The notes beneath the pieces are model-generated. The model worked only from the letters and a program-made list of their open reading frames with translations, had not been told where the DNA came from and ran no database searches. The position numbers and the translations under genes are program-made. Shown here piece by piece: positions 5,249 through 30,960 of a stretch of 32,000 nucleotides of DNA (position 1 is the first letter of the stretch; every line of letters starts with the position of its first letter). The stretch covers positions 90,001 to 122,000 of the forward strand of contig CAYNZZ010000001.1 in the NCBI GenBank assembly GCA_964401865.1, given 5' to 3'. Source of the stretch: an uncultured Erysipelotrichaceae bacterium. Lineage in GTDB: Bacteria > Bacillota_I > Bacilli_A > Erysipelotrichales > Erysipelotrichaceae.

Positions 5249-5348
5249 CTTTACCCTGTGTTTGTTTTGAGTTAGTTTTTGTCTTTAAATAGACATTCAT
5301 TTATTGAAATGATAAAATCATTAAGTGATAAAAAAGAAAGGATGGTCT

Positions 5349-6020
5349 ATGATAAATAAATTATTTAAAAATAAGAAGAAAAGACATATCAATTTATTAT
5401 TAGTAATATTGCCTTTTATATTATTGATTGGTGTTTTTGGATTCGTTGCTCTTTCGTCGGCTAAATCATTGCTTGGCAATGGTTCAACTCCTTCTGGAAT
5501 ATCCAATTCTATTGAAAGTATGGATTATCATTTGAGAAATGGGGCTACTGAATTACAAAAAGAATATTTTAAAGAATTATCTGATTTATGTTCAGCTGAA
5601 ACCAAAGATAAAGAAGAAATAGCGAAATCGGTAGTAAAGAATTATATTGCTGATTTTTATACTTGGACAAATAAAGCTGGTTCATATGATGTAGGAGGAT
5701 TATATTATGTTCATTCTCCTTCGAAGAGCAATATCTATGCCTATGCAAGAAATAATTTCTATAAATATCTAACAAATTATATTGCTGAATATAAGAGTGA
5801 GAATTTATTAGAGGTTGAATCAGTTGAAGTTGAAGGTAATAAAATATCTGAGCCTTACAATTATAATGGAGTTAACTATGATGCGTATTATTATCGCGCT
5901 ACATGGAAATATGTAAATCATAGTGGTTTTGATAATAGTGACTATTTAACAAGCCAAAACTTTTTAGTTATTGAAAATCAAGATGGACGCTTTGAGATTG
6001 TTCAAGCGTATGGAGATTAA
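5349..6020 (+). CDS. Hypothetical N-terminally membrane-anchored extracytoplasmic protein
   Basis: I prefer the ATG at 5349 because the SD AAAGGA (5337-5342) lies 6 nt upstream. The track start at 5325 is a GTG without an SD. The protein has a basic N-terminus, one TM segment (LLLVILPFILLIGVFGFVALS) and a Tyr/Asn-rich soluble domain. I recognised no family. Confidence 0.6.
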   Translation: MINKLFKNKKKRHINLLLVILPFILLIGVFGFVALSSAKSLLGNGSTPSGISNSIESMDYHLRNGATELQKEYFKELSDLCSAETKDKEEIAKSVVKNYIADFYTWTNKAGSYDVGGLYYVHSPSKSNIYAYARNNFYKYLTNYIAEYKSENLLEVESVEVEGNKISEPYNYNGVNYDAYYYRATWKYVNHSGFDNSDYLTSQNFLVIENQDGRFEIVQAYGD

Positions 6021-6023
6021 TCT

Positions 6024-8447
6024 ATGACAAAGAATAGTAAAAAAGGAAAGCAAATATTTAGTATTGCTACAGCCGTGCTTACTTTAGTGGCTAATATATT
6101 AGTTATTGTAGTAATGTTCATGGCCAATAAATATTCTGGTATTGAAACAAAGGCAATTTATAGTGTTTTTGCAATGGCTGTATGTGCTTTAGTTATCTTG
6201 GATATTGTATTCTTTGTTGGATACAATTATCGTGATCAAGTATTAAAAATTGTTACTTGTGCTATTGCGTTAGTATTAACTATTGGTGGTGGTGTCGGAA
6301 CATATTACATCTCAAGAGTTGATAGAGCTATTAATAATATCGTTAATGTGCAAGAAGGTGATACTTATGAAACAATTAGAGTTGTCTTTGCGACATACGA
6401 TAATAGCGCGATTAAATCAGTAGAAGATTTAAAGGGCAAAAATGTCGGTAGTTTAAATAATAGTGGTGTTAGTGCTGCTAGTGTTGGACAAAAATATTTA
6501 ACTGATAATGGCATTAGCGCTAATTTTAAAACGTATAATATGACTAGCGATTTATACCAAGCCTTAGTTGAAGGTGAAGTTGATGCCGCTATTTTCCCTA
6601 ATACATACCGTTCACAATTAAAGAGTGACGATGAATCTTTTGATGAGTTATTAGATAAAACAGTTGATATATACTCATTTGAAGAAAATGTTGTAACAAC
6701 TAATTCTAGTACATCAAATATTGATATTTCCGTTGAACCATTTAATATCTTATTGATTGGTTACGCACCAGAACCAGGTGGTGGCGGACTTACTGATACT
6801 ATCATTGTGGCATCAGTTAATCCAAAAACCATGACCGCTTCCTTAGTGTCTATTCCACGTGATAGTTATGTTCCTATTTCTTGCTACAACAATGCTAGAA
6901 GTAAGATAAATGATGCAGGTGCCGCAAGTAAAGCTTGTTTAATGGAAACAGTAAGCAATCTATTAGAGATTGATATCAATTTCTATATGGAAGTAAATTT
7001 TGAAGGATTAGTTGAGATTGTTGATGCTTTAGGCGGTATATTAATCAACTCACCGGTTGAATTCGTTGGACAAAGTGCGTCATCTAATCGTGGTGAAATG
7101 ACTGTATGGGTTCCGGCTGGTGAATATTTAGCCAATGGTGAACAAGCCCTAGCTTTTGCAAGAGAAAGACACGCAATGCCTAATGGGGACTTTGATCGTC
7201 AAATCCATCAACAACAAGTTATATCGGAAATTGTTAGAAAATTTATGGATTTAAAAGATATCAACCAAGCTCTATCAGTTATGGATGCAGCGGGCGAAAA
7301 CTTCTCAACTAACTTGAGCATTAAACAGTTGACAAGTATTTTCAATTATATGCTTACAGCTCCAAACTATACTGGATTGCCTCAATTCAACATGATTCAA
7401 ATGAAGAGTTCGAGAGTTACCGGTTATACTAGATGGTTCTATAGCTATTCAATGAGACTTCCTCTATGGAGTTATTATCTATGGGATGGTTCAATTAGAG
7501 ATAATGTTAAATTGTTAGATGAAACGCAAGGTGAGTATAGCTCATATAGTGACCAACCGACATTATTTAATTTCTTTGTCGAATATCCATATCAAAGTGC
7601 ACCACTTTATTATGAATATTATGATGAGCCAATGGTTCCGGAAGATATGCCACCATACTATCCTCGTTTGACAAGTATGACATATGAAGAAGCGATGGCT
7701 TGGGCAAGTGCTAACGGCGTAACTTTAGAAGTCATTTCAATTAATGAGGGTGAAGCAGGATATGACGCTAATGCGATTGGCAGTATTGTCGATCAATATC
7801 CTCGATATGGAGCACTTGTTTCTGAATATGGAACAGGTACAATTACTGTTATCGGTTCACCACTAAATGAATCAGATAAAGTTCCTAACTTTGTTGGTAA
7901 ATCAATTTATGATGTATATGATTGGGCAAATGCTAATGGATATTCAGTAACTGAAATCATTGAAGCAAATACTGATTCTTCTTTAGCTGGTAAGGTAATA
8001 AGTCAAAGTATTAATGCAGGCACAAACAAAGCGCTTCACGATACTATCGAAATTAAATACTATGAAATTCCAACTATTTCAGTAGCTGACTTAGATGCTG
8101 GAATATATAGATGGACAGAAGCAGATATTAATGCTTGGTTATCTAACGTTGGCATATCATCTACTCCTAAGTTTGTATACGAAGAAACTGATAAGTATGG
8201 CGAAGGACTGTTGATTGGTTATAGTGTTAGTAAGCCGGTAACTAAGTATTCGACATTTACATTTGTTATGGCTAAAAAACCGACAGAAATAATACCGCCA
8301 GAAACAAGCGACCCAACAGATACGCCTACAAATCCGCCGACCGGAACAACTACTCCATCACCGAAGCCATCTGAGCCGACCGGAACAACTACTCCATCAC
8401 CGAAGCCATCTGAACCAGCCGATAATGGTGAATCTGAAGTTCAATAA
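6024..8447 (+). CDS. LytR-CpsA-Psr (LCP) family glycopolymer phosphotransferase with extra domains (N-terminal TM block, PBP-like segment, C-terminal PASTA-like repeats, Pro/Thr-rich tail)
   Basis: 807 aa. The LCP core reads FNILLIGYAP...GLTDTIIVASVNP...SIPRDSYV...NFEGLVEIVDALGG...GEQALAFARERH...GDFDRQIHQQQV. Upstream of it is the segment IRVVFATYDNSAIKSVEDLKGKNVGS...ALVEGEVDAAIFP, which resembles a periplasmic-binding-protein fold. Downstream are three roughly 65-aa units, for example VPNFVGKSIYDVYDWANANGYSVTEII...GKVISQSINAGT, which resemble PASTA domains. Confidence 0.85.
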   Translation: MTKNSKKGKQIFSIATAVLTLVANILVIVVMFMANKYSGIETKAIYSVFAMAVCALVILDIVFFVGYNYRDQVLKIVTCAIALVLTIGGGVGTYYISRVDRAINNIVNVQEGDTYETIRVVFATYDNSAIKSVEDLKGKNVGSLNNSGVSAASVGQKYLTDNGISANFKTYNMTSDLYQALVEGEVDAAIFPNTYRSQLKSDDESFDELLDKTVDIYSFEENVVTTNSSTSNIDISVEPFNILLIGYAPEPGGGGLTDTIIVASVNPKTMTASLVSIPRDSYVPISCYNNARSKINDAGAASKACLMETVSNLLEIDINFYMEVNFEGLVEIVDALGGILINSPVEFVGQSASSNRGEMTVWVPAGEYLANGEQALAFARERHAMPNGDFDRQIHQQQVISEIVRKFMDLKDINQALSVMDAAGENFSTNLSIKQLTSIFNYMLTAPNYTGLPQFNMIQMKSSRVTGYTRWFYSYSMRLPLWSYYLWDGSIRDNVKLLDETQGEYSSYSDQPTLFNFFVEYPYQSAPLYYEYYDEPMVPEDMPPYYPRLTSMTYEEAMAWASANGVTLEVISINEGEAGYDANAIGSIVDQYPRYGALVSEYGTGTITVIGSPLNESDKVPNFVGKSIYDVYDWANANGYSVTEIIEANTDSSLAGKVISQSINAGTNKALHDTIEIKYYEIPTISVADLDAGIYRWTEADINAWLSNVGISSTPKFVYEETDKYGEGLLIGYSVSKPVTKYSTFTFVMAKKPTEIIPPETSDPTDTPTNPPTGTTTPSPKPSEPTGTTTPSPKPSEPADNGESEVQ
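8337..8414 (+). repeat. Two tandem copies of a 39-bp unit inside the LCP gene, encoding PTGTTTPSPKPSE twice
   Basis: The copies at 8337-8375 and 8376-8414 are identical except for the last base (G versus A). They are in frame with the LCP ORF. Confidence 0.95.
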
Positions 8448-8534: not shown

Positions 8535-9998
8535 ATGGAGAAAAAAGAAGATTTACGCTTTTATACGACATTGTCAATTGCATTAATATTCATGTTTGGC
8601 ATGCGATATGTGCCGTCATTTCCTGGCTTAAGTGCTTCAGGGATGCAAGTGATTGGTATTTTTATTGGAGTGTTATTATTGTGGCTTACAGTTTCGATAG
8701 ATTGGCCCTCGATATTATTATTAGGAGCATTAGCTTTAGTTCCTGAACTAAAATTTAGTACAATCTTGTCAGGTTCTTATGGCAATTCAACTTTTGTTTT
8801 TTTGATGTTTACTTTCGTGATAACTTATGCTTTATCAAAGACGAGCTACATCAAAAGAATCGCATTATCATTCATCACTTCTAAGATAGCTCAAAAAGGA
8901 CCATGGCATTTTGTGATTTTATATTCGCTTTCAATTATTTTTTTAGGTATGTTTATCTCGCCAACGGTGCTATTTTTTGTATATCTGCCTATTGTTGAAG
9001 AAATTTACGAATTATTAAAGCTAAAAAAAGGCAATAAACTGGCTGCTTTATTAATGATGTCTACTGTAATTATGTGTGGAATTTCTAGCGGTATGACACC
9101 AATAGCCCATGTTTTCCCGCTCATCAGCATGGGCTTATATTCTGATATGTATGGAATGACTATTGATTATGCAAGATATATGATGATTGCTATTCCGGTT
9201 GGATTTTTGACATTTGCGTTAGTGCTTTTAGCCTTTAAATTATTTTTAAGACCAGACATGTCTTCGTTTAAAAATTTTGACATCAGCAAAATTACTGGCG
9301 TTAATAAAGAGATTAGAAGAAGTGAAAAAATCACTCTAGCAATATTTATCTTAGTTGTATGTCTATGGATTATTCCAGGGTTGATGATGTTGGTTATTAA
9401 AAGTGGTCCAATTTATGATTTTTTAAATTATTTTGATAAATTTGGTACTGCAATGCCTCCGCTTATTGGTTTGGTGCTATTATGTGTTATTAGGGTGGAC
9501 AACAAACCTTTGTTAACTATTGGTGAGGCTATGTCAAAAGGAGTTTCTTGGCCTAGTTTGATTATGTGTGCAGGAACATTAGCTTTGGGCAGTGCTTTAA
9601 CTAATGCTGATGTAGGTGTAACCGCATGGTTATCAAATGGTTTATCACCAGTTATTTCGCTTTTGTCTCCAACTATTATGGTATTGATATTCACCTTATG
9701 GGCAGCTATTCAAACTAACTTGTCTAGTAATATGGTTACAGCTACGCTTGTTACAACGGCTGCTTTAACTATTACCTCGGGAATGAATGAAATATGTATT
9801 CCTGGGCTTGTCGTAATAATAGGGATGATGGCATCGTTTTCTTTTGCCACACCGCCAGCAATGCCATGTGTAGCTGTGGCGGCAAGTAGCGGATGGACCA
9901 ATACTATGCAAATGATGAAATATGGATTTGTTGCAATGCTTATCGCTGTCGTTATATCGGTTGTCGTTGGCTATCCAATTTCACTTATGATTTTTTAA
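8535..9998 (+). CDS. DASS/SLC13-like anion:sodium symporter family permease
   Basis: 487-aa all-helical membrane protein. Two hairpin-tip-like motifs, GISSGMTPIA and LSSNMVTATL, recall the SNT motifs of DASS transporters. The substrate is unknown. Confidence 0.55.
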   Translation: MEKKEDLRFYTTLSIALIFMFGMRYVPSFPGLSASGMQVIGIFIGVLLLWLTVSIDWPSILLLGALALVPELKFSTILSGSYGNSTFVFLMFTFVITYALSKTSYIKRIALSFITSKIAQKGPWHFVILYSLSIIFLGMFISPTVLFFVYLPIVEEIYELLKLKKGNKLAALLMMSTVIMCGISSGMTPIAHVFPLISMGLYSDMYGMTIDYARYMMIAIPVGFLTFALVLLAFKLFLRPDMSSFKNFDISKITGVNKEIRRSEKITLAIFILVVCLWIIPGLMMLVIKSGPIYDFLNYFDKFGTAMPPLIGLVLLCVIRVDNKPLLTIGEAMSKGVSWPSLIMCAGTLALGSALTNADVGVTAWLSNGLSPVISLLSPTIMVLIFTLWAAIQTNLSSNMVTATLVTTAALTITSGMNEICIPGLVVIIGMMASFSFATPPAMPCVAVAASSGWTNTMQMMKYGFVAMLIAVVISVVVGYPISLMIF

Positions 9999-10012
9999 AA
10001 GGGGTAATGCAA

Positions 10013-10465
10013 ATGTTAAAAGAAGGAATTAAAGCTCCAAATTTCAAATTAAAGGATTCGTATGGAAATGTCAGAGAGTTAAGCGAATGGAAGGGTAAGA
10101 AGATAGTTTTATATTTTTATCCAAAAGATGATACACCTGGTTGTACCGCTCAAGCGTGCAGCTTCAGAGATAATTACAGTATGTATGCCGAAAAAGATGT
10201 GGTTTTAGTAGGCATCAGTAAAGATACTGTTTCTTCACATTTAAAATTTATTAATAAATATGATTTACCATTCATCCTATTAAGCGATAAAGAAAAGGAA
10301 GTATGCAGTACATATGATGTTTTAAAAGAAAAATCTATGTATGGCAAAAAATACATGGGCATAGTAAGAAGTACATACATAATTGATGAAGACGGTATAA
10401 TCATTAAGAGTATGGATAATGTTGATCCCAATACTAATGCACTTGATGTATTAAAGTATTTATAG
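10013..10465 (+). CDS. bcp: Thiol peroxidase Bcp (thioredoxin-dependent peroxiredoxin)
   Basis: Motifs APNFKLKDSYG...VLYFYPKDDTPGCTAQACSFRD. I chose the ATG at 10013 because the SD AAAGGGG (9998-10004) lies 8 nt upstream. The track start at 9893 would overlap the transporter gene. Confidence 0.9.
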   Translation: MLKEGIKAPNFKLKDSYGNVRELSEWKGKKIVLYFYPKDDTPGCTAQACSFRDNYSMYAEKDVVLVGISKDTVSSHLKFINKYDLPFILLSDKEKEVCSTYDVLKEKSMYGKKYMGIVRSTYIIDEDGIIIKSMDNVDPNTNALDVLKYL

Positions 10466-10497: not shown

Positions 10498-10526
10498 CAA
10501 GAGGCAAATAAAGCCTCTTATTTTAT
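10498..10526 (+). terminator. Rho-independent terminator after bcp
   Basis: CAAGAGGC, then loop AAATAAA, then GCCTCTT, followed by ATTTTAT. Confidence 0.65.
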
Positions 10527-10547: not shown

Positions 10548-10576
10548 TTAAAAAAATCACAATTTTACGATATAAT
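10548..10576 (+). promoter_or_regulatory. Candidate promoter of the hydrogenase operon
   Basis: TTAAAA (10548-10553), a 17-bp spacer, then TATAAT (10571-10576), 29 nt before ATG 10606. The SD AAGGA lies at 10593-10597. Confidence 0.4.
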
Positions 10577-10605
10577 TTTATCAAGGAAAGAGAAGGATAA
10601 TAATT

Positions 10606-12072
10606 ATGGGTTTGTTTAAACATGACGCTCGAGTTTTGAAATTCGATATTTTAAGAGAAGTGGCAGAAGAAACTTTTGAAGGAAGACTTAAAGATGAATC
10701 AATACAGAAATATATCCATCAATTAGCACCGGGAAATAAAACGCAATTCAGGTGTTGTGTATATAAAGAAAGAGAAATACTTAGGCAAAGAGCTAGACTG
10801 TCAATGGGTAAAATGGCTAATGACGAAACAGTTCATCGTCCTAAGCAAATAGTACAGGTAATCAATGCAGCATGTGATGGCTGCACAATCAGAAAAATAC
10901 AAGTTACTGATAATTGCCGTAAGTGTATGGCGAAAAGTTGCATGGGAGCTTGTCAATTTGGCGCTATTTCAATGGGTGAAAATAGAGCGAGCATTGACTA
11001 TGATAAATGTCGAGAGTGTGGCGCTTGCGCAAGGAGTTGCCCTTACAACGCTATTGTAGTTACCGAAAGGCCGTGTAAAGCTTCTTGCCCGGTTGATGCG
11101 ATAGGTTATGATGAGGATGGCATCGCAGTAATAAACGAAGACAAATGTATTAACTGTGGACGATGCCAAGCGGCATGTCCATTTGGAGCTATCGAAGATA
11201 TTTCTTGGATAGTACCAGTGGCTGAACTGCTTAGAATGAAGGCTAAAATGATAGCTATTGTCGCACCATCTATACAAGGACAATTTCCTAATACCAGTAT
11301 CGGACAGATTAAAAAAGCAATCAAAATGTTAGGTTTTGAAGATGTGATTGAAGCGGCTATTGGCGCAGATATTGTTGCGTATTATGAACACGAAGAATTA
11401 AAGGAACACATTAAAGATGGCAAGACATTAACTACTTCATGTTGCCCGGCTTTTGTAAACATGGCTAAAATACATTTCCCTGAAGTGTACAAGGAAAATG
11501 TATCGACAATGGTATCGCCAATGATGGCAACCGCTTCTTTGATTAAAGAAAAATATCCTGATTATGGATTAGTGTTCGTTGGACCATGTTTAGCCAAAAA
11601 GCAAGAAGCCATGGAAGAATTCACGAGCATCGATTATGTTTTAACCTTTGAAGAAATGGCGGCAATGCTTATTGCCAAGAAAATTCATCCATCAGAGCTT
11701 GAAGATGACGAAGAAGAAAAACTAGTCACGACATTTGGTCGTAATTTCGCTCAAGGCGGCGGTGTATCTAAAGCGGTGATACAAGTCAGTCAAGAAAAGG
11801 GTGATGACTCATTTACTTCATACTATGCTGATGGAGCATTTGATTGTAAAAAACAATTAACGCTCATAAAGTTTGGTAAATTTCCATATCAGGTATTGGA
11901 AGGTATGTGTTGTGATGGTGGATGTATCAATGGTCCATGTACAATTGAGGATGCCCTTGTAACAAAAGGCAGAATGAATAAAGAAAATATGGGTCGTGAT
12001 ACTAAGATTAAAGAATCAGTTGAACACTACAATATAAAGGAAAGCGGTGTAGCTCTACACCGTGAAAAATAG
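10606..12072 (+). CDS. [FeFe]-hydrogenase, putative catalytic subunit (multi-ferredoxin N-terminus plus H-cluster domain; resembles the 'monomeric/group B' type)
   Basis: 488 aa with several CxxCxxCxxxCP ferredoxin motifs (CRECGACARSCP, CINCGRCQAACP). The H-cluster motifs are L1 TTSCCP (about 11431-11448), L2 GPCLAKKQE (11581-11607) and L3 EGMCCDGGCINGP (11899-11937). Confidence 0.85.
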   Translation: MGLFKHDARVLKFDILREVAEETFEGRLKDESIQKYIHQLAPGNKTQFRCCVYKEREILRQRARLSMGKMANDETVHRPKQIVQVINAACDGCTIRKIQVTDNCRKCMAKSCMGACQFGAISMGENRASIDYDKCRECGACARSCPYNAIVVTERPCKASCPVDAIGYDEDGIAVINEDKCINCGRCQAACPFGAIEDISWIVPVAELLRMKAKMIAIVAPSIQGQFPNTSIGQIKKAIKMLGFEDVIEAAIGADIVAYYEHEELKEHIKDGKTLTTSCCPAFVNMAKIHFPEVYKENVSTMVSPMMATASLIKEKYPDYGLVFVGPCLAKKQEAMEEFTSIDYVLTFEEMAAMLIAKKIHPSELEDDEEEKLVTTFGRNFAQGGGVSKAVIQVSQEKGDDSFTSYYADGAFDCKKQLTLIKFGKFPYQVLEGMCCDGGCINGPCTIEDALVTKGRMNKENMGRDTKIKESVEHYNIKESGVALHREK

Positions 12073-12081
12073 GAGGATAAG

Positions 12082-12339
12082 ATGATTACAGTACAGATAT
12101 GTTTGGGGAGTGCGTGTTATGTGCGCGGAAGTAAAAAAGCTGTTGATATTTTGAAGAAATCAATAAGTGAGAATAACTGGGAAGATAAAGTTGAACTTCA
12201 AGGGAGCTTCTGCAAAAAATATTGTGAAAGAGAAACCGGATTAGGTATCACTGTAAATGGTGAATATTTAGAAGGTGTTGGTATTCATAACTTAAAAGAA
12301 ATATTTGAAAGTAGAATTAATGAACTATTATGCCAATAA
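12082..12339 (+). CDS. Small thioredoxin-like [2Fe-2S] ferredoxin (NuoE/HndA-type fold)
   Basis: 85 aa with Cys pattern Cx4C...Cx3C (ICLGSAC ... SFCKKYC). A strong SD AGGAGG lies upstream. Its stop overlaps the start of the next gene. Confidence 0.7.
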   Translation: MITVQICLGSACYVRGSKKAVDILKKSISENNWEDKVELQGSFCKKYCERETGLGITVNGEYLEGVGIHNLKEIFESRINELLCQ

Positions 12340-14006
12340 TTAAGCTGAGTGAAGATAATTGTCATCATTGCATGCGCTGTGTCAGAGCTTGTCCTACCAA
12401 TGCGATGACCTATATAAACAACGAACCGGTTATTAATGAAGAAGAATGCATTTTATGTGGGAAGTGTTATGCGATATGCCCGCATAGTGCTAAAAGAGTA
12501 AGCAGTGATATAAAAATAATTCAAAACTGGATCGATAATAAAGAGAAGGTTGTTTTGAGTGTAGCACCTAGTTTTGTCCGTGTTTTTCCATCGTTTAAAC
12601 ACTTAAAGAGTTCGTTGATTGAAAAGGGTTTTTATGCGGTTGATGAAACATCAAAAGGAGCTAAAAAAGTATCGGAACAGTATTTGGCTTTGATGAATGA
12701 AGGCAAAATGGACAACATTATCTCAACTTGCTGCCCAGCTATTGTTGATTATGTTGAAAAGTATTTCCCTGAATGTGTCAAATATCTTGCACCAATAGTA
12801 TCGCCAATGATAGCTCACGCTAAAGAATTAAAAGAGGAATACGGAGATGTTAAAGTAGTATTTTTAACGCCTTGTATTGCTAAGAAAAAAGAAATTCTTA
12901 AAAAGGAAGTAGCTGGCTATGTCGATGCGACGATATCGATGGAAGAGATGATGTATTTGCTCGATGAGGATTTTTCTGGCGATATTCCGGATTATAATGA
13001 TGAAGAAAAAATGGTATCGAGAATCTATCCAAGCGGTGGCGGTGTGCTTAAAACTCTTCCAAATAGTGAGAAGTACAAGATGATCCATATTGAAGGCATT
13101 AAAAACGCCAAATCAATACTTGAGACGCTATCAAGAGGAGAATTGCATAATTATTTTATAGAAATGTCATCTTGCGATAATTCTTGTATTAATGGTCCAC
13201 TACTTGTTCATTTGAACGACAGCGAATTTAAGGCCATTGACATTATGGAAAACGAGGTTAAAAACTTAGAGCCAATCAAAGATGGAATCGCTGATGAAAA
13301 ATTAGTGACTAAGTACCAGGAAAATCCAATCGTTCCTCAAGAACACAGTGAAGAAGAAATTAAAGATGTACTTAATAAAATGGGTAAGACCAGTAAGGTT
13401 TTGGAGTTGAATTGTGGAGCTTGCGGATATGATACATGTCGCTTAAAAGCTATAGCGGTTCTTGAAAATAAAGCGGATATTAATTTGTGCCTGCCAAAAG
13501 CCTTAAAAGATGCTAAGTCATATTCTAATCTCATTATTTTAAATACTCCTAACGGCATAATTGTACTAGATGAGAATTTAAAAATTGAAGAAATCAATCC
13601 GGCTGCCAAGGCGATGTTTGAAGTTGAAAATATTAACGTGATTGGTTTACCGATCGAGATGCTATTAAACGATAATGGTTTAATGCGCAAGATTAAACAG
13701 GTTCATAATGCTCAGTTTTATAGATGCGCATACGAAAAGTATGGCTTAATTATTGAACACGCCATTATTAAAATACATGAAAGCAAGAAGATAATTCTGA
13801 TTTTAATGGACTTGACAATCGAAACCAAAAGAGAGAAGACGTTAAGTGAAATCAGAAAACAGACAATTGAAGTAACTGACAGAGTTATTGATGAACAAAT
13901 GCGTACCGTTCAGGAAATCGCTTCATTGCTTGGCGAAACAACAGCTAAAGCCAAGGTTGCCCTTAATAAATTAAAAAGAGAGCTAGAAGATGATAGAGAT
14001 ATGTAA
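12330..14006 (+). CDS. hydS: Sensory-type [FeFe]-hydrogenase (HydS-like, group C): ferredoxin domain + H-domain + Cx2Cx4Cx16C + PAS + C-terminal helix
   Basis: 558 aa with N-terminal CHHCMRCVRACP and CILCGKCYAICP. The H-domain motifs are L1 STCCP (12723-12737), L2 TPCIAKKKE (12864-12893) and L3 EMSSCDNSCINGP (13161-13199). The pattern CGACGYDTC-x16-C runs from Cys codon 13413 to Cys codon 13488. A PAS-like segment follows (NTPNGIIVLDENLKIEEINPAAKAMF...), then a helical tail. Confidence 0.8.
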   Translation: MPIIKLSEDNCHHCMRCVRACPTNAMTYINNEPVINEEECILCGKCYAICPHSAKRVSSDIKIIQNWIDNKEKVVLSVAPSFVRVFPSFKHLKSSLIEKGFYAVDETSKGAKKVSEQYLALMNEGKMDNIISTCCPAIVDYVEKYFPECVKYLAPIVSPMIAHAKELKEEYGDVKVVFLTPCIAKKKEILKKEVAGYVDATISMEEMMYLLDEDFSGDIPDYNDEEKMVSRIYPSGGGVLKTLPNSEKYKMIHIEGIKNAKSILETLSRGELHNYFIEMSSCDNSCINGPLLVHLNDSEFKAIDIMENEVKNLEPIKDGIADEKLVTKYQENPIVPQEHSEEEIKDVLNKMGKTSKVLELNCGACGYDTCRLKAIAVLENKADINLCLPKALKDAKSYSNLIILNTPNGIIVLDENLKIEEINPAAKAMFEVENINVIGLPIEMLLNDNGLMRKIKQVHNAQFYRCAYEKYGLIIEHAIIKIHESKKIILILMDLTIETKREKTLSEIRKQTIEVTDRVIDEQMRTVQEIASLLGETTAKAKVALNKLKRELEDDRDM

Positions 14007-15177
14007 TCATGTAGAAGCGTGCTACAAATCATTAAATAAATATAAAGAAGAGTTGTGCGGAGATAATGTCAGGTTAAGACGCAATAAAGATTTTTTTCAT
14101 GTGGTATTGGCCGATGGTTTGGGATCGGGTGTTAAAGCCAATATATTATCTAATCTAACATCGACCATTATTTCTGAGATGGTTTCCAGTGGCGAAGAAC
14201 TTGAAGATGTTATTGATACAATGTTACATACTCTTCCGGAATGTAAAGATAGGGGTATAGCCTATTCAACTTTTTCTATCGCTCAAGTATATAACGACGG
14301 ACTAGCTTACATTGCTGAGTTTGATAATCCAAGGGCTATCGTTTTAAGGGATGGCGAGGTTTTAAACCTTACTTATATCGACAGAATGATTTTTGATAAA
14401 GAAGTACATGAAACAGTATTTAAAACTAAAGAAGGCGATGTAATAATTCTATTTTCTGACGGTTTGATTCATGCCGGTTTAGGAAAAACACTTAATTTTG
14501 GTTGGGATCATGAACAAATTCAAGAATTCGTTAAGAGTAGTTTTAGACCTACCGATAATGTAGAAGATATGGCAAATATCTTACTTGCCAATGTCAACTA
14601 TTTATATGGCGGCGAGTGTGGCGACGATTCGACCGTTGCGATTATGAAAGTCGTTAAAGCTAAAAAGACTATGGTTATGGTTGGCCCACCGCAAGATAGA
14701 AACGATGATGAAAAGGTAGTTCAAAAATTATTGACTGCGACCGGTAAAAAGGTATGCTGTGGTGGCACTACTTCTAATATTGTCGCTAGAGAACTCAAAA
14801 AAGAAGTTACAATGGACAGCCTATCGCTATTAAGTGTCGATGTTCCGCCCATTGTTCACATTGAAGGAATTGATCTGGCTACTGAAGGGGTACTTACTTT
14901 ACAAAAAGTCGATTCATATTTGCATAAGATGGTTAAAGATAAAGGTTTGATGAAAGAGGTTCTTACATCAAAAGATCATGATGGTGCACTTGATTTATTG
15001 AGAGTCTTAATACGTGATTCAACCGAAATAACATTTATGGTTGGACAAAGTGACAATCCTGCTCATAAGGCTTTAGCTTATTCAACAATCAGTTTAAATG
15101 CCAAAAAACAAGTTATCGAAGAAATTGCGAAAAATTTAAGAATGCTTAATAAAATTGTTCATTTAGAATATTATTGA
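13990..15177 (+). CDS. PP2C/SpoIIE-family serine phosphatase with an uncharacterised roughly 170-aa C-terminal domain
   Basis: 395 aa with metal-binding Asp motifs VVLADGLGSGVKA, LFSDGLIHAG and GDDSTVAIMKV. The ATG at 13990 overlaps the end of the HydS-like gene by 17 nt. I recognised no motif in the C-terminal half (from about nt 14660). Confidence 0.8.
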   Translation: MIEICNHVEACYKSLNKYKEELCGDNVRLRRNKDFFHVVLADGLGSGVKANILSNLTSTIISEMVSSGEELEDVIDTMLHTLPECKDRGIAYSTFSIAQVYNDGLAYIAEFDNPRAIVLRDGEVLNLTYIDRMIFDKEVHETVFKTKEGDVIILFSDGLIHAGLGKTLNFGWDHEQIQEFVKSSFRPTDNVEDMANILLANVNYLYGGECGDDSTVAIMKVVKAKKTMVMVGPPQDRNDDEKVVQKLLTATGKKVCCGGTTSNIVARELKKEVTMDSLSLLSVDVPPIVHIEGIDLATEGVLTLQKVDSYLHKMVKDKGLMKEVLTSKDHDGALDLLRVLIRDSTEITFMVGQSDNPAHKALAYSTISLNAKKQVIEEIAKNLRMLNKIVHLEYY

Positions 15178-15240
15178 TATTTCATATAAAGTTCACATTA
15201 ATCACATAGTGAAAACACAATTGTTAAATATAATGATATT

Positions 15241-15337
15241 ACAGTTAGCTAATAGTTTATCCCCCTTAATATCTTTAACAAAAGCTAAACTGTTATAATA
15301 AAAAAGGTGTAGACTCCTTTCCTACACCTTTTATTTT
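15241..15337 (+). ncRNA. Candidate small RNA or structured 3' UTR with two C/U-rich (anti-SD-like) loops
   Basis: TATAAT at 15229-15234 lies 6 nt upstream. Hairpin 1 pairs 15241-15250 with 15283-15293 (10 bp, one bulge), and its 32-nt loop contains UAUCCCCCUUAA. Hairpin 2 is the terminator, whose loop is ACUCCUUUC. This rests on structure alone. It may simply be the operon 3' end. Confidence 0.25.
15303..15337. terminator. Strong bidirectional rho-independent terminator between convergent units
   Basis: AAAGGTGTAG (15303-15312) pairs with CTACACCTTT (15322-15331). An A-run lies on the 5' side and a T-run on the 3' side, so the hairpin works on both strands. Confidence 0.8.
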
Positions 15338-16639: not shown

Positions 16640-16645
16640 GAAAGT

Positions 16646-16845
16646 ACAGTTTTGATGGATAGAGTAGACAAATTAAGGCTAAAGAGAGTTTCTGATTGGT
16701 GCGAAGAAATGTTGATGTTTGTTGAAGATGGATCTTGAACTTTGTGTCTGATATGTAAGACATGACGTAAACTTGCGTTAAGAGTTAAAGGAACAAATTA
16801 AGGTGGTACCGCGCTCTTGCGCCCTTTGTGCTACCTTTTTATTTT
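16646..16845 (+). promoter_or_regulatory. T-box riboswitch leader (Met-specific by context) with terminator/antiterminator
   Basis: The T-box core AATTAAGGTGGTACCGCG lies at 16796-16813. The terminator pairs AAGGTGGTAC (16800-16809) with GTGCTACCTT (16828-16837), with inner GCGC/GCGC pairs, and is followed by the rest of the T-run TTTTTATTTT, which as a whole spans 16836-16845. Stem-I-like TGATGG...AGAGTAG lies at about 16652-16668 and AAAGAGAG at 16681-16688. It sits directly upstream of metG. Confidence 0.85.
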
Positions 16846-18770: not shown

Positions 18771-18824
18771 TTATTTAACTTAAATCTAACTTTAGCTTTG
18801 TTAGAATTAAAAAGGAGGAAAGTT

Positions 18825-19289
18825 ATGAAAAAATTATTTATTGGATTATTAAGTGTGATGTTGGTGTTTTCTTTAAGTGGATGTGGCACTAAAAACGAAA
18901 ATGTCGAGGGTACTTTAGATGAAATTATGGATAAAGTGTATGATGGCATAAGCCAGGAAAACTTGCCAATGATGTTAGGAAGAATTGAAGTAAGTGCTGA
19001 TAATGCTATGTGGTATCTAGGCACTGATTCAATCGAATATGAGGAAGGGCTCGCTAGTGAATCGGGTGTCGGTTCAATTGCTCACTCGGTAGTGCTACTT
19101 AGAATGAAAGATGCTTCAGCAGCTACAAAGGCGGTCGAAACATTGAAAGAAACGGTCGATCCACGCAAATGGATATGCGTTGAAGCCGATGAATTGGTTG
19201 TTGAGTCTAAAGGAGATTTAGTTATCGTTATTCTTGATGGCAATGGTAACACCGAAACATTTAAAAATAATTTCTTGAATCTAAAATAA
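18825..19289 (+). CDS. Lipoprotein (possibly DUF4358-like)
   Basis: The ATG at 18825 follows the SD AAAGGAGGA (18811-18819). The signal peptide MKKLFIGLLSVMLVFSLSGC carries the lipobox LSGC. The DUF4358 resemblance is a recollection-level guess based on size, the lipobox and its position next to MBOAT/DHHW genes. Confidence 0.7.
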   Translation: MKKLFIGLLSVMLVFSLSGCGTKNENVEGTLDEIMDKVYDGISQENLPMMLGRIEVSADNAMWYLGTDSIEYEEGLASESGVGSIAHSVVLLRMKDASAATKAVETLKETVDPRKWICVEADELVVESKGDLVIVILDGNGNTETFKNNFLNLK

Positions 19290-21828: not shown

Positions 21829-22749
21829 ATGGGAATGAATCAAATTATTTTTGTAGTTTTATTAATCGTTTTAATATTTATGTTATCTAAAAATGTCAAA
21901 ATGTATAAAAGAATAAAACTTAATAAGCAATATGTAAATATATTTGGTGAAATGTTTAATTCAGGAAGAGATGAAGAGGCATATACTACCATTTCTAAAT
22001 ATGTTGCTGAAACTGAGAATGTTGAATTTAAGAATAAAGGTCGTATCTTTAAACTGTTTTTTGAATTGAGGGATGGATACGATTATCATGAAACACTTAA
22101 TCAATTAGATTTCAAAGAATTATTTTATGAAAAAGATAAAGTCGAGATGCAAAAGATAATCTTTAATAGCGATACTTTTATTTGGGTTGTCGCTTTATTA
22201 GCCAAGGCTAGAAAATGTGATGCACAAGATTTGATTGATGAAGTTATGAATAAGATAGATGTATATCAAGATATTTTACATAATTATGTTGAATATACAA
22301 TGTGCAAGAGTGTACAAAAATCACTTAAAAAAGAGGATGATTTAGGAAATACTTTCCTGAGAGATCTAATCAATGGTGATTATACTGAATATAAATATGA
22401 TAAACGCTTAATTGGTTTTTACAAAAAGATTGCTGCTGCATTTTTAGCTTACAACGGCGAGGAATTGAGTGATTTTGAAAAAGACGATGTAAAATTGTTT
22501 GCCACTTCCATTGTAGGTAAATCAGTTTTAAGTGATTTAGACCTATATGAAGAATATCAACCGGTTTTACAAGTTGATGCAAAGGAAGATGAAAATGCTG
22601 AAGCAGACGAAGAAACTTTAGATGGCGAAAAAATTGTTGATGATGAAAAAAACGAAGAGTTAAAAACAGAAGAAGTAGAAATTTCCGATGATAAAAATGT
22701 AGAGATGTCAACGGAATCAGAATCTAAGGAAGAAAAGGAAGAAGAATGA
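21829..22749 (+). CDS. Hypothetical N-terminally anchored protein with a highly acidic Glu/Asp/Lys-rich C-terminal tail
   Basis: 306 aa. The SD TAAGGAG lies upstream. It has one N-terminal TM (IIFVVLLIVLIFML), a helical body, and a low-complexity final 60 aa or so (DENAEADEETLDGEKIVDDEKNEELKTEEVE...KEEKEEE). Its stop TGA overlaps the pth ATG. Confidence 0.6.
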   Translation: MGMNQIIFVVLLIVLIFMLSKNVKMYKRIKLNKQYVNIFGEMFNSGRDEEAYTTISKYVAETENVEFKNKGRIFKLFFELRDGYDYHETLNQLDFKELFYEKDKVEMQKIIFNSDTFIWVVALLAKARKCDAQDLIDEVMNKIDVYQDILHNYVEYTMCKSVQKSLKKEDDLGNTFLRDLINGDYTEYKYDKRLIGFYKKIAAAFLAYNGEELSDFEKDDVKLFATSIVGKSVLSDLDLYEEYQPVLQVDAKEDENAEADEETLDGEKIVDDEKNEELKTEEVEISDDKNVEMSTESESKEEKEEE

Positions 22750-27278: not shown

Positions 27279-27313
27279 AAAGCCCTATTACATATATTGT
27301 GCAATAGGGCTTT
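27279..27313. terminator. Bidirectional terminator between convergent divIC and the 119-aa gene
   Basis: AAAGCCCTATT (27279-27289) pairs with AATAGGGCTTT (27303-27313) around a 13-nt loop. A/T runs lie on both sides. The hairpin abuts the minus-strand stop at 27312-27314. Confidence 0.7.
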
Positions 27314-27671
27314 ATAATTTGACTTTAACTAGTTTACTGGTCAGAAATTCTTTTCTGGCTCCATTAATCATGGATCTAGAAATAGATTTTTTATTGCTTT
27401 CTTTATAATCTTTTCTAACTAAATAGATTAATGTAAAGATGACGAATGCTTTTTTAAAACTACTAACGGATTGTTTGAACTTATTAGTGGTAAGTTTTAT
27501 CGATTCATTTATCTCTTCAATGTGATTGGTGGCTTGAATGATATTTTCATTTAAATGTTTGGCTATGTTCGATGCTTTAATTAACATTTTTATAAGTAAT
27601 ACTAAAATGATAACTATAACAGCCACATAAGCATAAATAATATATGAATTAATCAATCGCAGCATTTCCAT
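27312..27671 (-). CDS. Small membrane-anchored coiled-coil protein (possibly DUF948-like)
   Basis: 119 aa with an N-terminal TM (IIYAYVAVIVIILVLLI), then a helical segment and a second hydrophobic stretch. It lies 4 nt downstream of yigZ on the same strand. The family guess is weak. Confidence 0.5.
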   Translation of the reverse strand: MEMLRLINSYIIYAYVAVIVIILVLLIKMLIKASNIAKHLNENIIQATNHIEEINESIKLTTNKFKQSVSSFKKAFVIFTLIYLVRKDYKESNKKSISRSMINGARKEFLTSKLVKVKL

Positions 27672-29868: not shown

Positions 29869-30960
29869 TTAGAGATTAAGGCTATTAAATTTTGGTAGCT
29901 TATTAATTAAAGCTGCTATTTCTTTATCATTTACTTTGGTATCGACAAAAATAACAATATCGTAATAATCGTTATTTCTGTAATTTTTTAATCCGCCAAG
30001 TTCATTACAAATATAACATTCATCAAAAACAATCTCGCTAAGTTTTTGACTATTATAATCGATTCCAAATTTCAATATCTCTATTGCTTGATTTTTATAT
30101 TTGTCTAAATGATTTAAAGTGTATCTTAAACAATTGTTAATTATAGGGTTGATTAAGTTATATGTAATAGAATCAACCTGACATTTTCTTTTTTCGATAT
30201 TTCCAAGTTTATATTCATAAGGTTTTATTTGAAACATTGAATGAAATAAATCATCATTATCTAATATGATTTCTAAAAATTCATCCTGACAAAAAATACA
30301 TTCTTCTGATCCATAATGACCATTTGTTAAAAACATATTGTATGAGTCAAAAATATCATAAAATAGTTGAGCATCATTCATACTGGCAACAAGACGAGCG
30401 AATTCAATAAGATTTTTAAAATTAATAAATATTAAATCATTAGTTTTTTTGGACTGAAAATGATTGTGATACCATTTTATCTTTATCCCATACTCATCAT
30501 GAAGGTACCTAACAGCGTTGATTGAATTATATTCCACTACATAATCAAGAAAGCTATTTTCAAATTCATCGATTCGAGAAATAATAGAATGACCACTCCT
30601 TGTAGTCAATAAATCGAGTTCTTTTTTATATAATTTTGGATCATCTAAGTACGCATAATATTCAAATCCTTTACTAAATGGCACATTATCTTTTTCAATA
30701 GGTAATTTATATGCATCTTCATCTAGCAATCTAGCTAGTGAAACTCCAAATATTTTTTCTAAAGGAATGATAAATTCATATTTAAGAGGTCTTTCTTCTT
30801 TTAACATTTTTGAAAAATTAGATTTTTCTTTATTGGCAAATTCATATGCTTCTTGTCCTTTGATTCCTAATTCATTAGCGATTTTAATGAGTAAATGACT
30901 ATACATCTTTATTCCTTTTAGTTTCATGTAATGATCAATATTGTTTTTTAAGCTATTCAT
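29869..30960 (-). CDS. Orphan protein: N-terminal XRE-type helix-turn-helix domain plus roughly 280-aa unknown domain with two E-C-x-x-C knuckles
   Basis: 363 aa. The SD GGAAG lies 7 nt upstream of the ATG at 30960. The HTH-like N-terminus reads LKNNIDHYMKLKGIKMYSHLLIKIANELGI...NFSKMLKEERPLKYEFIIPLEKIFGVSLARLL. Later come GSEECIFCQDEF and FDECYICNELGG. I recognised no family for the remainder. Confidence 0.6.
   Translation of the reverse strand: MNSLKNNIDHYMKLKGIKMYSHLLIKIANELGIKGQEAYEFANKEKSNFSKMLKEERPLKYEFIIPLEKIFGVSLARLLDEDAYKLPIEKDNVPFSKGFEYYAYLDDPKLYKKELDLLTTRSGHSIISRIDEFENSFLDYVVEYNSINAVRYLHDEYGIKIKWYHNHFQSKKTNDLIFINFKNLIEFARLVASMNDAQLFYDIFDSYNMFLTNGHYGSEECIFCQDEFLEIILDNDDLFHSMFQIKPYEYKLGNIEKRKCQVDSITYNLINPIINNCLRYTLNHLDKYKNQAIEILKFGIDYNSQKLSEIVFDECYICNELGGLKNYRNNDYYDIVIFVDTKVNDKEIAALINKLPKFNSLNL

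Follow-up and report, generated by a model that had tools for sequence, protein, structure and literature searches.

A 32,000-nucleotide stretch of contig CAYNZZ010000001.1 (positions 90,001 to 122,000 of the forward strand; GenBank assembly GCA_964401865.1) from an uncultured Erysipelotrichaceae bacterium, referred to here as the window, carries four co-directional genes on the + strand (10606-15177; Table 1). These encode a group B [FeFe]-hydrogenase, a small [2Fe-2S] ferredoxin, a HydS-type putative sensory [FeFe]-hydrogenase and a SpoIIE-type PP2C phosphatase that bears an additional C-terminal domain (CTD), and are numbered ORF1 to ORF4 (ORF, open reading frame). We consider it reasonably probable that this cassette is an H2-sensing operon of the hfs/HydS type, in which the group B enzyme and a regulatory core of ORF2, HydS and PP2C would share one transcript.

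The locus is an ordinary, if well-preserved, representative of a hydrogen-metabolism gene unit known from fermenting gut bacteria, not a new one, and the novelty implied by the original prediction did not survive comparison with the literature. The pairing of a group B with a sensory hydrogenase is that of the published hfs operon: hfsABCD of Thermoanaerobacterium saccharolyticum and T. thermosaccharolyticum, as matched by published descriptions, comprises the same four gene types. HfsA, which is small, 'matches part of [FeFe] large subunits', HfsB is a hydrogenase with a PAS domain, HfsC is a serine phosphatase, and the group B hydrogenase, HfsD, is linked to ferredoxin (PMC11837493, PMC8924675). 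The order in the window, D-A-B-C, is a circular permutation of A-B-C-D rather than a different system, in a mesophilic, low-GC, gut-type host unlike Thermoanaerobacterium. The hydA2-hydS cluster of Ruminococcus albus is also closely related, since a ferredoxin-only hydrogenase is co-transcribed there with a putative H2-sensing PAS hydrogenase and a Ser/Thr phosphatase subunit, and H2 feedback has been proposed; that cluster, however, runs to eight genes, AdhE and further regulatory elements among them, and has a catalytic enzyme classed as group A1, whereas the window is without the extras (PMC6776011). Both hydrogenase classes have moreover been listed in HydDB since 2016, as '[FeFe] group C3, phosphatase-linked (putative)' and group B 'colonic-type (putative)', the latter with a probable coupling of reduced-ferredoxin oxidation to H2 evolution in gut anaerobes (PMC5037454). 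The two definitions fit the window genes with no apparent difference.

Identity of the four proteins

ORF calling reproduced exactly the four co-directional ORFs of the original prediction, with their coordinates, lengths and junctions. They had been described as a putative catalytic [FeFe]-hydrogenase, an 85-aa 2Fe-2S protein, a HydS-like protein with a PAS domain and a PP2C phosphatase, and all four assignments were borne out by the searches reported below. At the sequence level, ORF1 is confirmed as a 'colonic-type', HfsD/HydA2-like monomeric group B [FeFe]-hydrogenase, matching TIGR04105 FeFe_hydrog_B1 ("monomeric [FeFe] hydrogenase, group B1") over residues 5-449 with 553 bits (cutoff 450 bits) and the Pfam family Fe_hyd_lg_C with E = 1.8e-60. 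Its H-domain motifs are TSCCP at 277, GPCxxKxxE at 326 and MCCxxGC at 432, and it further has a Cys-rich N-terminal region and two ferredoxin-like 4Fe-4S motifs.

Searched alone against Pfam, ORF2 scored 21.6 with 2Fe-2S_thioredx, under the gathering score of 24.8, while a family profile built from 46 relatives matched the C-terminal [2Fe-2S] domain of Thermotoga maritima HydA (7p5h_A 571-640; E = 2e-15) and HydC (8a6t_C; E = 1e-10), and 45 of the 46 family members matched PF01257. The ligand pattern C7-x4-C12...C44-x3-C48 is complete, its four cysteines being invariant in 67 of 67 sequences. On these profiles ORF2 is a true thioredoxin-like [2Fe-2S] ferredoxin of the PF01257 family (NuoE/HydC C-terminal domain type).

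ORF3 has the domain order of TmHydS, the biochemically characterised sensory hydrogenase of T. maritima, with two N-terminal [4Fe-4S] clusters, an H-domain, a C-terminal [4Fe-4S] cluster and a PAS domain (PMC10055695). In ORF3 these correspond to two [4Fe-4S] motifs at residues 4-54, an H-domain at 72-290, a four-Cys cluster at 360-389 and PAS at about 402-500, followed by a helix at about 505-558. Hidden Markov model searches with Pfam returned two Fer4 matches, Fe_hyd_lg_C (6.7e-43), PF04060 FeS (9e-10, residues 360-389) and PAS_8 (24.5 bits over residues 402-448, above the gathering score of 21.8 bits), and ORF3 scored below the cutoffs of the NCBIfam group A and group B models. The H-cluster ligands C135, C182, C282 and C286 align with C300, C355, C499 and C503 of CpI. 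Conservation extends to all cluster cysteines across 75-77 relatives, the four H-cluster ligands being kept in 75-76 and C362, C365, C370 and C387 of the C-terminal cluster in 76-77.

The surroundings of the H-cluster point in the same direction. Replacement of M353 and M497 is the published signature of slow sensory hydrogenases, and the residues found in the ORF3 family match the reported frequencies (PMC10055695): ORF3 has T180 and S280 at the two positions, and its 75-76 relatives have G/S/T and N/S/L, respectively, never Met. TmHydS shares Ser at the M497 position (S267) and differs at the M353 position, where it has Gly and ORF3 has Thr. ORF3 is thus confirmed by sequence as a HydS-type putative sensory hydrogenase of group C with the M2f architecture, which has been assigned to this group and is typified by TmHydS (PMC13104023). 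It also fits HydDB group C3 by definition, as its gene adjoins a Ser/Thr phosphatase gene, this subgroup being matched by description.

At the proton-relay position (C299 equivalent) ORF3 retains a cysteine, C134 in STCCP, where TmHydS has A131. The phosphatase-linked relatives are divided at this site, with Cys in 39 of 75, Ala in 29 and Ser in 5. Since the feature is not universal, retention of the relay cysteine does not exclude ORF3 from group C as judged by sequence. The share of relay cysteines among phosphatase-linked relatives exceeds the 17% reported for sensory hydrogenases overall (PMC10055695).

ORF4 consists of two domains. The N-terminal one matches PF07228, its profile matches SpoIIE (5mqh, 3t91, 5ucg) and RsbX (3w40) structures, and a Foldseek search with the full-length model gave 5mqh at E = 3e-14 and 3pu9 with a TM score of 0.77. 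In structure, it is closest to SpoIIE, a Sphaerobacter phosphatase, Rv1364c and RsbX. The acidic metal ligands D25, D42, D157, D212 and D213 are invariant in 31 sequences. With the SpoIIE/RsbU/RsbX partner-switching phosphatases ORF4 shares the catalytic fold and the acidic metal-binding residues; unlike them, it has no N-terminal regulatory domain and no nearby STAS/anti-sigma partner, and carries a unique 172-aa CTD.

This second domain, which had been missed in the earlier reading of the sequence, is conserved as strongly as the catalytic domain, with the invariant motifs VGPP, CGGTT, DVPP, GxDLxTEGV, DGA and SDNPA. AlphaFold 2 modelled it with a predicted local distance difference test score (pLDDT) of 87 and a predicted template modelling score (pTM) of 0.85 on its own, and full-length ORF4 with pLDDT 85 and pTM 0.84. 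The model predicts a Rossmann-like alpha/beta fold and places the conserved motifs where the strands end C-terminally, a placement shared with Rossmann-like domains that bind ligands. Searched against Pfam, the CTD gave nothing above noise, and a permissive search returned only chance-level matches to GatB_Yqey (E = 0.008) and DUF6967. Against the PDB, Foldseek found no significant fold match (best E = 0.02, TM below 0.36), and the weak matches are all nucleotide-binding proteins. A STAS-like substrate domain was considered and rejected as homology, no STAS structure being among the fold matches. An exhaustive search of 1.8 billion representative sequences placed the CTD in 762 representative clusters, always as PP2C+CTD or as fragments. 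One short match was checked as a possible stand-alone CTD protein (P0125) and proved to be a truncated gene call at a contig end, for which reason short matches were not counted as a separate architecture. The phosphatase family as a whole numbers about 8000 matches, all around 394 aa, with the nearest named relatives in Anaerorhabdus, Solobacterium and Holdemania, and more than 20 public contigs encode a protein identical to ORF4 among the same neighbours.

This under-described element may be a new kind of regulatory domain and the missing link of [FeFe]-based H2 sensing, acting through binding of a nucleotide or redox metabolite as a second input, through docking to HydS or as the regulated phospho-site, a proposal that we put forward tentatively and regard as somewhat doubtful. 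If it is true, the minimal four-gene operon of the Erysipelotrichaceae, which has neither a kinase nor Rex or AdhE close by, would offer the simplest setting for working out the signal chain.

Layout and conservation of the cassette

The genes are tightly packed, with a gap of 9 nt between ORF1 and ORF2 and overlaps of 10 nt between ORF2 and ORF3 and of 17 nt between ORF3 and ORF4, which confirms the overlapping starts first noted for the sensor and phosphatase genes. An AGGAGG ribosome-binding site overlaps the ORF1 stop codon. The starts of ORF3 and ORF4 lie within the preceding gene and have weak Shine-Dalgarno sequences, an arrangement that fits translational coupling. On the 5' side the unit is bounded by the hairpin of the bcp (peroxiredoxin) gene, and a promoter candidate lies about 30 nt 5' of the ORF1 start codon. 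On the 3' side, the strong hairpin between the convergent genes reads GGTGTAG-loop-CTACACC on the + strand, followed by TTTTATTTT, and is probably a bidirectional intrinsic terminator that closes the operon. Of the promoter and strong terminator originally predicted to frame the genes, the hairpin thus stood, with its 12-bp stem; the promoter is placed by position and belongs to a class of sites not enriched over shuffled sequence. An Rfam search found no regulatory RNA in the operon leader; the sole match was a T-box before metG.

Table 1. Features of the window, with positions counted from its first nucleotide
Feature	Position	Strand	Length	Description
ORF1	10606-12072	+	488 aa	group B [FeFe]-hydrogenase
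ORF2	12082-12339	+	85 aa	HfsA-like thioredoxin-like [2Fe-2S] ferredoxin
ORF3	12330-14006	+	558 aa	HydS-type putative sensory [FeFe]-hydrogenase, group C, M2f
ORF4	13990-15177	+	395 aa	SpoIIE-type PP2C phosphatase + C-terminal domain
PP2C (SpoIIE/RsbU/RsbX-type) domain	13990-14658	+	ORF4 residues 1-223	PF07228, 60.7 bits
Uncharacterised C-terminal domain	14659-15177	+	172 aa (ORF4 residues 224-395, + stop)	predicted Rossmann-like alpha/beta
Terminator-like hairpin of upstream bcp	10499-10519	+		7-bp stem, 4 GC pairs, T-rich tail
Sigma-70-like promoter candidate	10548-10576	+		TTAAAA-17-TATAAT, 10/12 matches, best-scoring site of the region
Strong hairpin between convergent genes	15302-15332	.		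12-bp stem; listed by the program on the - strand
ORF without Pfam match	622-2334	-
ORF without Pfam match	5325-6020	+
ORF without Pfam match	18798-19289	+
ORF without Pfam match	21829-22749	+
ORF without Pfam match	27312-27671	-

Gene neighbourhoods were compared in the best 80 of at least 560 genomes with a full-length relative of the phosphatase (a scan with one genome per species); the 80 include Bacillota, Bacteroidales, Treponema and Calditrichales. A HydS-type gene lies directly upstream of the phosphatase gene in all 80 loci, and the small [2Fe-2S] gene upstream of HydS in 71-73. The group B hydrogenase varies far more in position: it is upstream on the same strand, as in the window, in 17 loci, mainly of Erysipelotrichaceae, immediately downstream (the hfsABCD order) in 28 and divergent in 3, and is thus adjacent in any orientation in 48, whereas in the other 32 there is none within 9 kb. 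Full-length relatives of ORF1 itself, with 38-83% identity, adjoin the sensor module in 46-48 of the genomes. The small protein, HydS and PP2C thus form an invariant triplet, and the catalytic group B hydrogenase is a frequent but dispensable neighbour of it.

Other genes recur beside the triplet at lower frequency. Rex adjoins it in 15 loci and AdhE in 12, and NuoF-/NuoE-like HydB/HydC with a group A hydrogenase (the HydABC subunits) in 14-15. A small kinase of 250 aa (APH/RIO/Pkinase-like) is adjacent in six loci (L069, 6188-6943; L033, L049, L057, L066 and L078); in five of them its gene immediately precedes that of the small [2Fe-2S] protein, with Rex and AdhE ahead of it in four, and in L078 it is downstream of AdhE. 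It is a candidate counter-kinase of the phosphatase. Full clusters in the order Rex, AdhE, kinase, small protein, HydS, PP2C and HydB are present in L033, L057 and L069. A protein of about 500 aa is encoded directly 3' of the phosphatase in eight loci (L082, 10161-11681; L021-L025, L034 and L068); it matched no Pfam family and showed only a weak zinc-ribbon-like stretch at about 376-413. It is absent from the window; in the lineages that have it, it may be an additional part of the module.

The same four-gene cassette is kept amid different flanking genes in other genomes, which argues that the arrangement is not due to chance. Among Erysipelotrichaceae relatives a DJ-1/PfpI gene often precedes it (L011, L012, L014-L016, L037) and a DUF1349 gene often follows it (L007, L011, L012, L014, L016), while in the window it stands between the peroxiredoxin gene and a convergent gene for a CmpB-like membrane protein. 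This difference in flanks indicates that the cassette has moved as a unit.

The original prediction had stated that the signalling output is not visible in the window, and this holds for the 20 further ORFs screened with Pfam (a 363-aa ORF at 29869-30960 on the - strand was left out of the screen). None of the 20 is a kinase, STAS protein, transcription factor, NuoF-like flavoprotein or hydE/F/G product, and none is Rex, AdhE, the small kinase or a HydABC subunit. A cognate STAS substrate or anti-sigma kinase was found neither among these ORFs nor as a recurrent neighbour in the 80 loci. Rex, AdhE and the small kinase, as recurrent partners outside the triplet, are candidate targets.

Proposed signalling by the cassette

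Starting from the observed protein identities, cofactor ligands, catalytic residues and conserved synteny, we infer co-transcription, a contact between HydS and the phosphatase, a target and a direction of control in the following scheme. Judged by their sequences, the group B enzyme would dispose of reduced ferredoxin as H2, and HydS would bind H2 at its complete H-cluster, the surroundings of which appear tuned for slow turnover, and would swap electrons with its dedicated [2Fe-2S] protein via the FeS relay. By analogy with the related systems, the H2 or redox state of HydS might then be relayed through the C-terminal cluster, the PAS domain and the helix to the phosphatase, which translational coupling would supply stoichiometrically, and the phosphatase would dephosphorylate a Ser/Thr phosphoprotein encoded elsewhere. 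The hydrogenase and fermentation enzymes such as AdhE would thereby be adjusted in expression or activity, and the formation of H2 and ethanol would follow the ambient H2 pressure.

Genetic and expression studies of the relatives are consistent with such control. In R. albus, the cluster of ferredoxin-only hydrogenase, AdhE and sensory hydrogenase was 111-fold down at low H2 (PMC6776011). Thermoanaerobacterium genetics show a regulatory role: in T. saccharolyticum, adhE expression and ethanol yield go up when hfsA or hfsB is deleted but not when hfsC or hfsD is, and loss of hfsB also increases hydrogenase activity (PMC5707799). The Rex, AdhE, kinase and HydABC genes found beside the triplet likewise fit a regulator of redox and fermentation genes. 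The feedback from sensor through phosphatase to hydrogenase that was originally predicted for the window is the same as the hypothesis published for R. albus and Thermoanaerobacterium (PMC5707799, PMC6776011, PMC11837493). The accompanying statement that no complete signal chain has been demonstrated is borne out by reviews of 2024 and 2026, which still call the mechanism of HydS signal transduction unknown (PMC11376134, PMC13104023).

Several points weigh against the H2-sensing scheme. In T. thermosaccharolyticum, hfsD alone in a delta-hfsABCD background gives the delta-hfsB phenotype (PMC11837493), so that the phosphatase is not needed for that output. The C-terminal cluster of TamHydS is unresponsive to H2 (PMC13104023), and studies of these systems have named no target of the phosphatase (PMC11376134). 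Because ORF3 retains the relay cysteine, which TmHydS lacks, its turnover may be quicker than that of the model sensors. Transcription of the four genes as one unit is itself only inferred from the sequence. Its promoter is no more than plausible by position and without statistical support, as promoter-like sites are no commoner in this AT-rich DNA than in shuffled sequence (27 observed, 33.5 expected).

Three other explanations were weighed, and all are ranked below the H2-sensing scheme. It is unlikely, in our judgement, that the four proteins form one heteromeric catalytic hydrogenase, with ORF2 and HydS as electron-transfer subunits of the group B enzyme and the phosphatase as a post-translational on/off switch acting on a phospho-site of one subunit. 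H2 production was at first ascribed to the hfs genes as 'the' hydrogenase responsible (PMC8924675), the tight and overlapping junctions suggest co-assembly, ORF2 is most similar to the C-terminal [2Fe-2S] domain of multimeric HydA, and both the relay cysteine of ORF3 and the lack of an external target among the ORFs screened would agree with such a complex. The explanation is nevertheless ranked low because the triplet often occurs without the group B hydrogenase, there being none within range in 32 of the 80 loci, or with HydABC in its place. Furthermore, hfsD alone is functional in vivo (PMC11837493), and the consistent loss of both methionines from ORF3 and its relatives is the mark of a slow sensor (PMC10055695).

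Equally improbable appears a HydS that reports the state of the ferredoxin or NAD(P)H pool instead of H2, with electrons arriving via the [2Fe-2S] partner, the PAS domain or CTD binding a metabolite and the H-cluster serving as a mere electron sink. The dedicated [2Fe-2S] partner is almost universal, the frequently linked Rex and AdhE are NADH-responsive systems, the conserved CTD residues lie where a Rossmann-like ligand crevice would typically be and its weak fold matches bind nucleotides, and the PAS domain has been viewed as a possible redox sensor (PMC11837493). Strict retention of the H-cluster ligands among the relatives argues, however, that H2 chemistry matters, the R. albus response tracks the H2 level (PMC6776011), and a ligand of the PAS domain or CTD is hypothetical only.

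The phosphatase could also act within the module, on its own CTD (CGGTT, T260/T261, at a helix N-terminus) or on a site in HydS, with an outside kinase and the phospho-state of the CTD as output. SpoIIE, RsbX and RsbU have as substrates small alpha/beta domains that are phosphorylated where a helix begins (STAS partner switching). That these are the closest PP2C relatives by structural matching, that the GGTT motif is invariant, that the CTD is found only fused to this phosphatase and that a kinase gene is adjacent in six loci all favour this explanation, yet the CTD has no detectable similarity to the STAS fold, its phosphorylation sites are putative only and its invariant motifs are equally compatible with ligand binding, which together make it very unlikely.

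H2 sensing by [FeFe]-type sensors bears on the hydrogen economy of gut and rumen and on engineered ethanol production. The locus leaves the overall picture unchanged and offers a clean minimal example, while the survey sharpens the question by defining an invariant triplet, a true [2Fe-2S] ferredoxin and a phosphatase that always carries a conserved second domain.

Other features of the window

The 20 further ORFs screened with Pfam encode envelope, transport and housekeeping functions (an LCP-PASTA protein, a transporter, peroxiredoxin, MetRS, Pth, Mfd, DivIC and others). The T-box leader (Rfam RF00230, 108 bits) occupies 16643-16829 (+) upstream of the methionyl-tRNA synthetase gene, which indicates that the mechanical ORF start at 16803 (GTG) over-extends metG; gene calls on identical contigs give a product of 637 aa. 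The peroxiredoxin ORF (AhpC/TSA, Bcp-like; 9893-10465, +) is listed with 190 aa and overlaps the preceding transporter gene, and is called on identical contigs as 150 aa starting with MQMLKEG.

The 807-aa product of the ORF at 6024-8447 (+) is an unusual LCP fusion, in which a membrane segment at the N-terminus is joined to a periplasmic-binding-protein-like region (Phosphonate-bd/NMT1), a LytR-CpsA-Psr (LCP) domain and two PASTA domains; its C-terminal end is a tandem repeat rich in Pro and Thr (TGTTTPSPKPSEP x2). No Pfam match at E <= 1e-4 was obtained for five ORFs of 119-570 aa (Table 1); identical public contigs carry gene calls for four of them and do not cover the 570-aa ORF.

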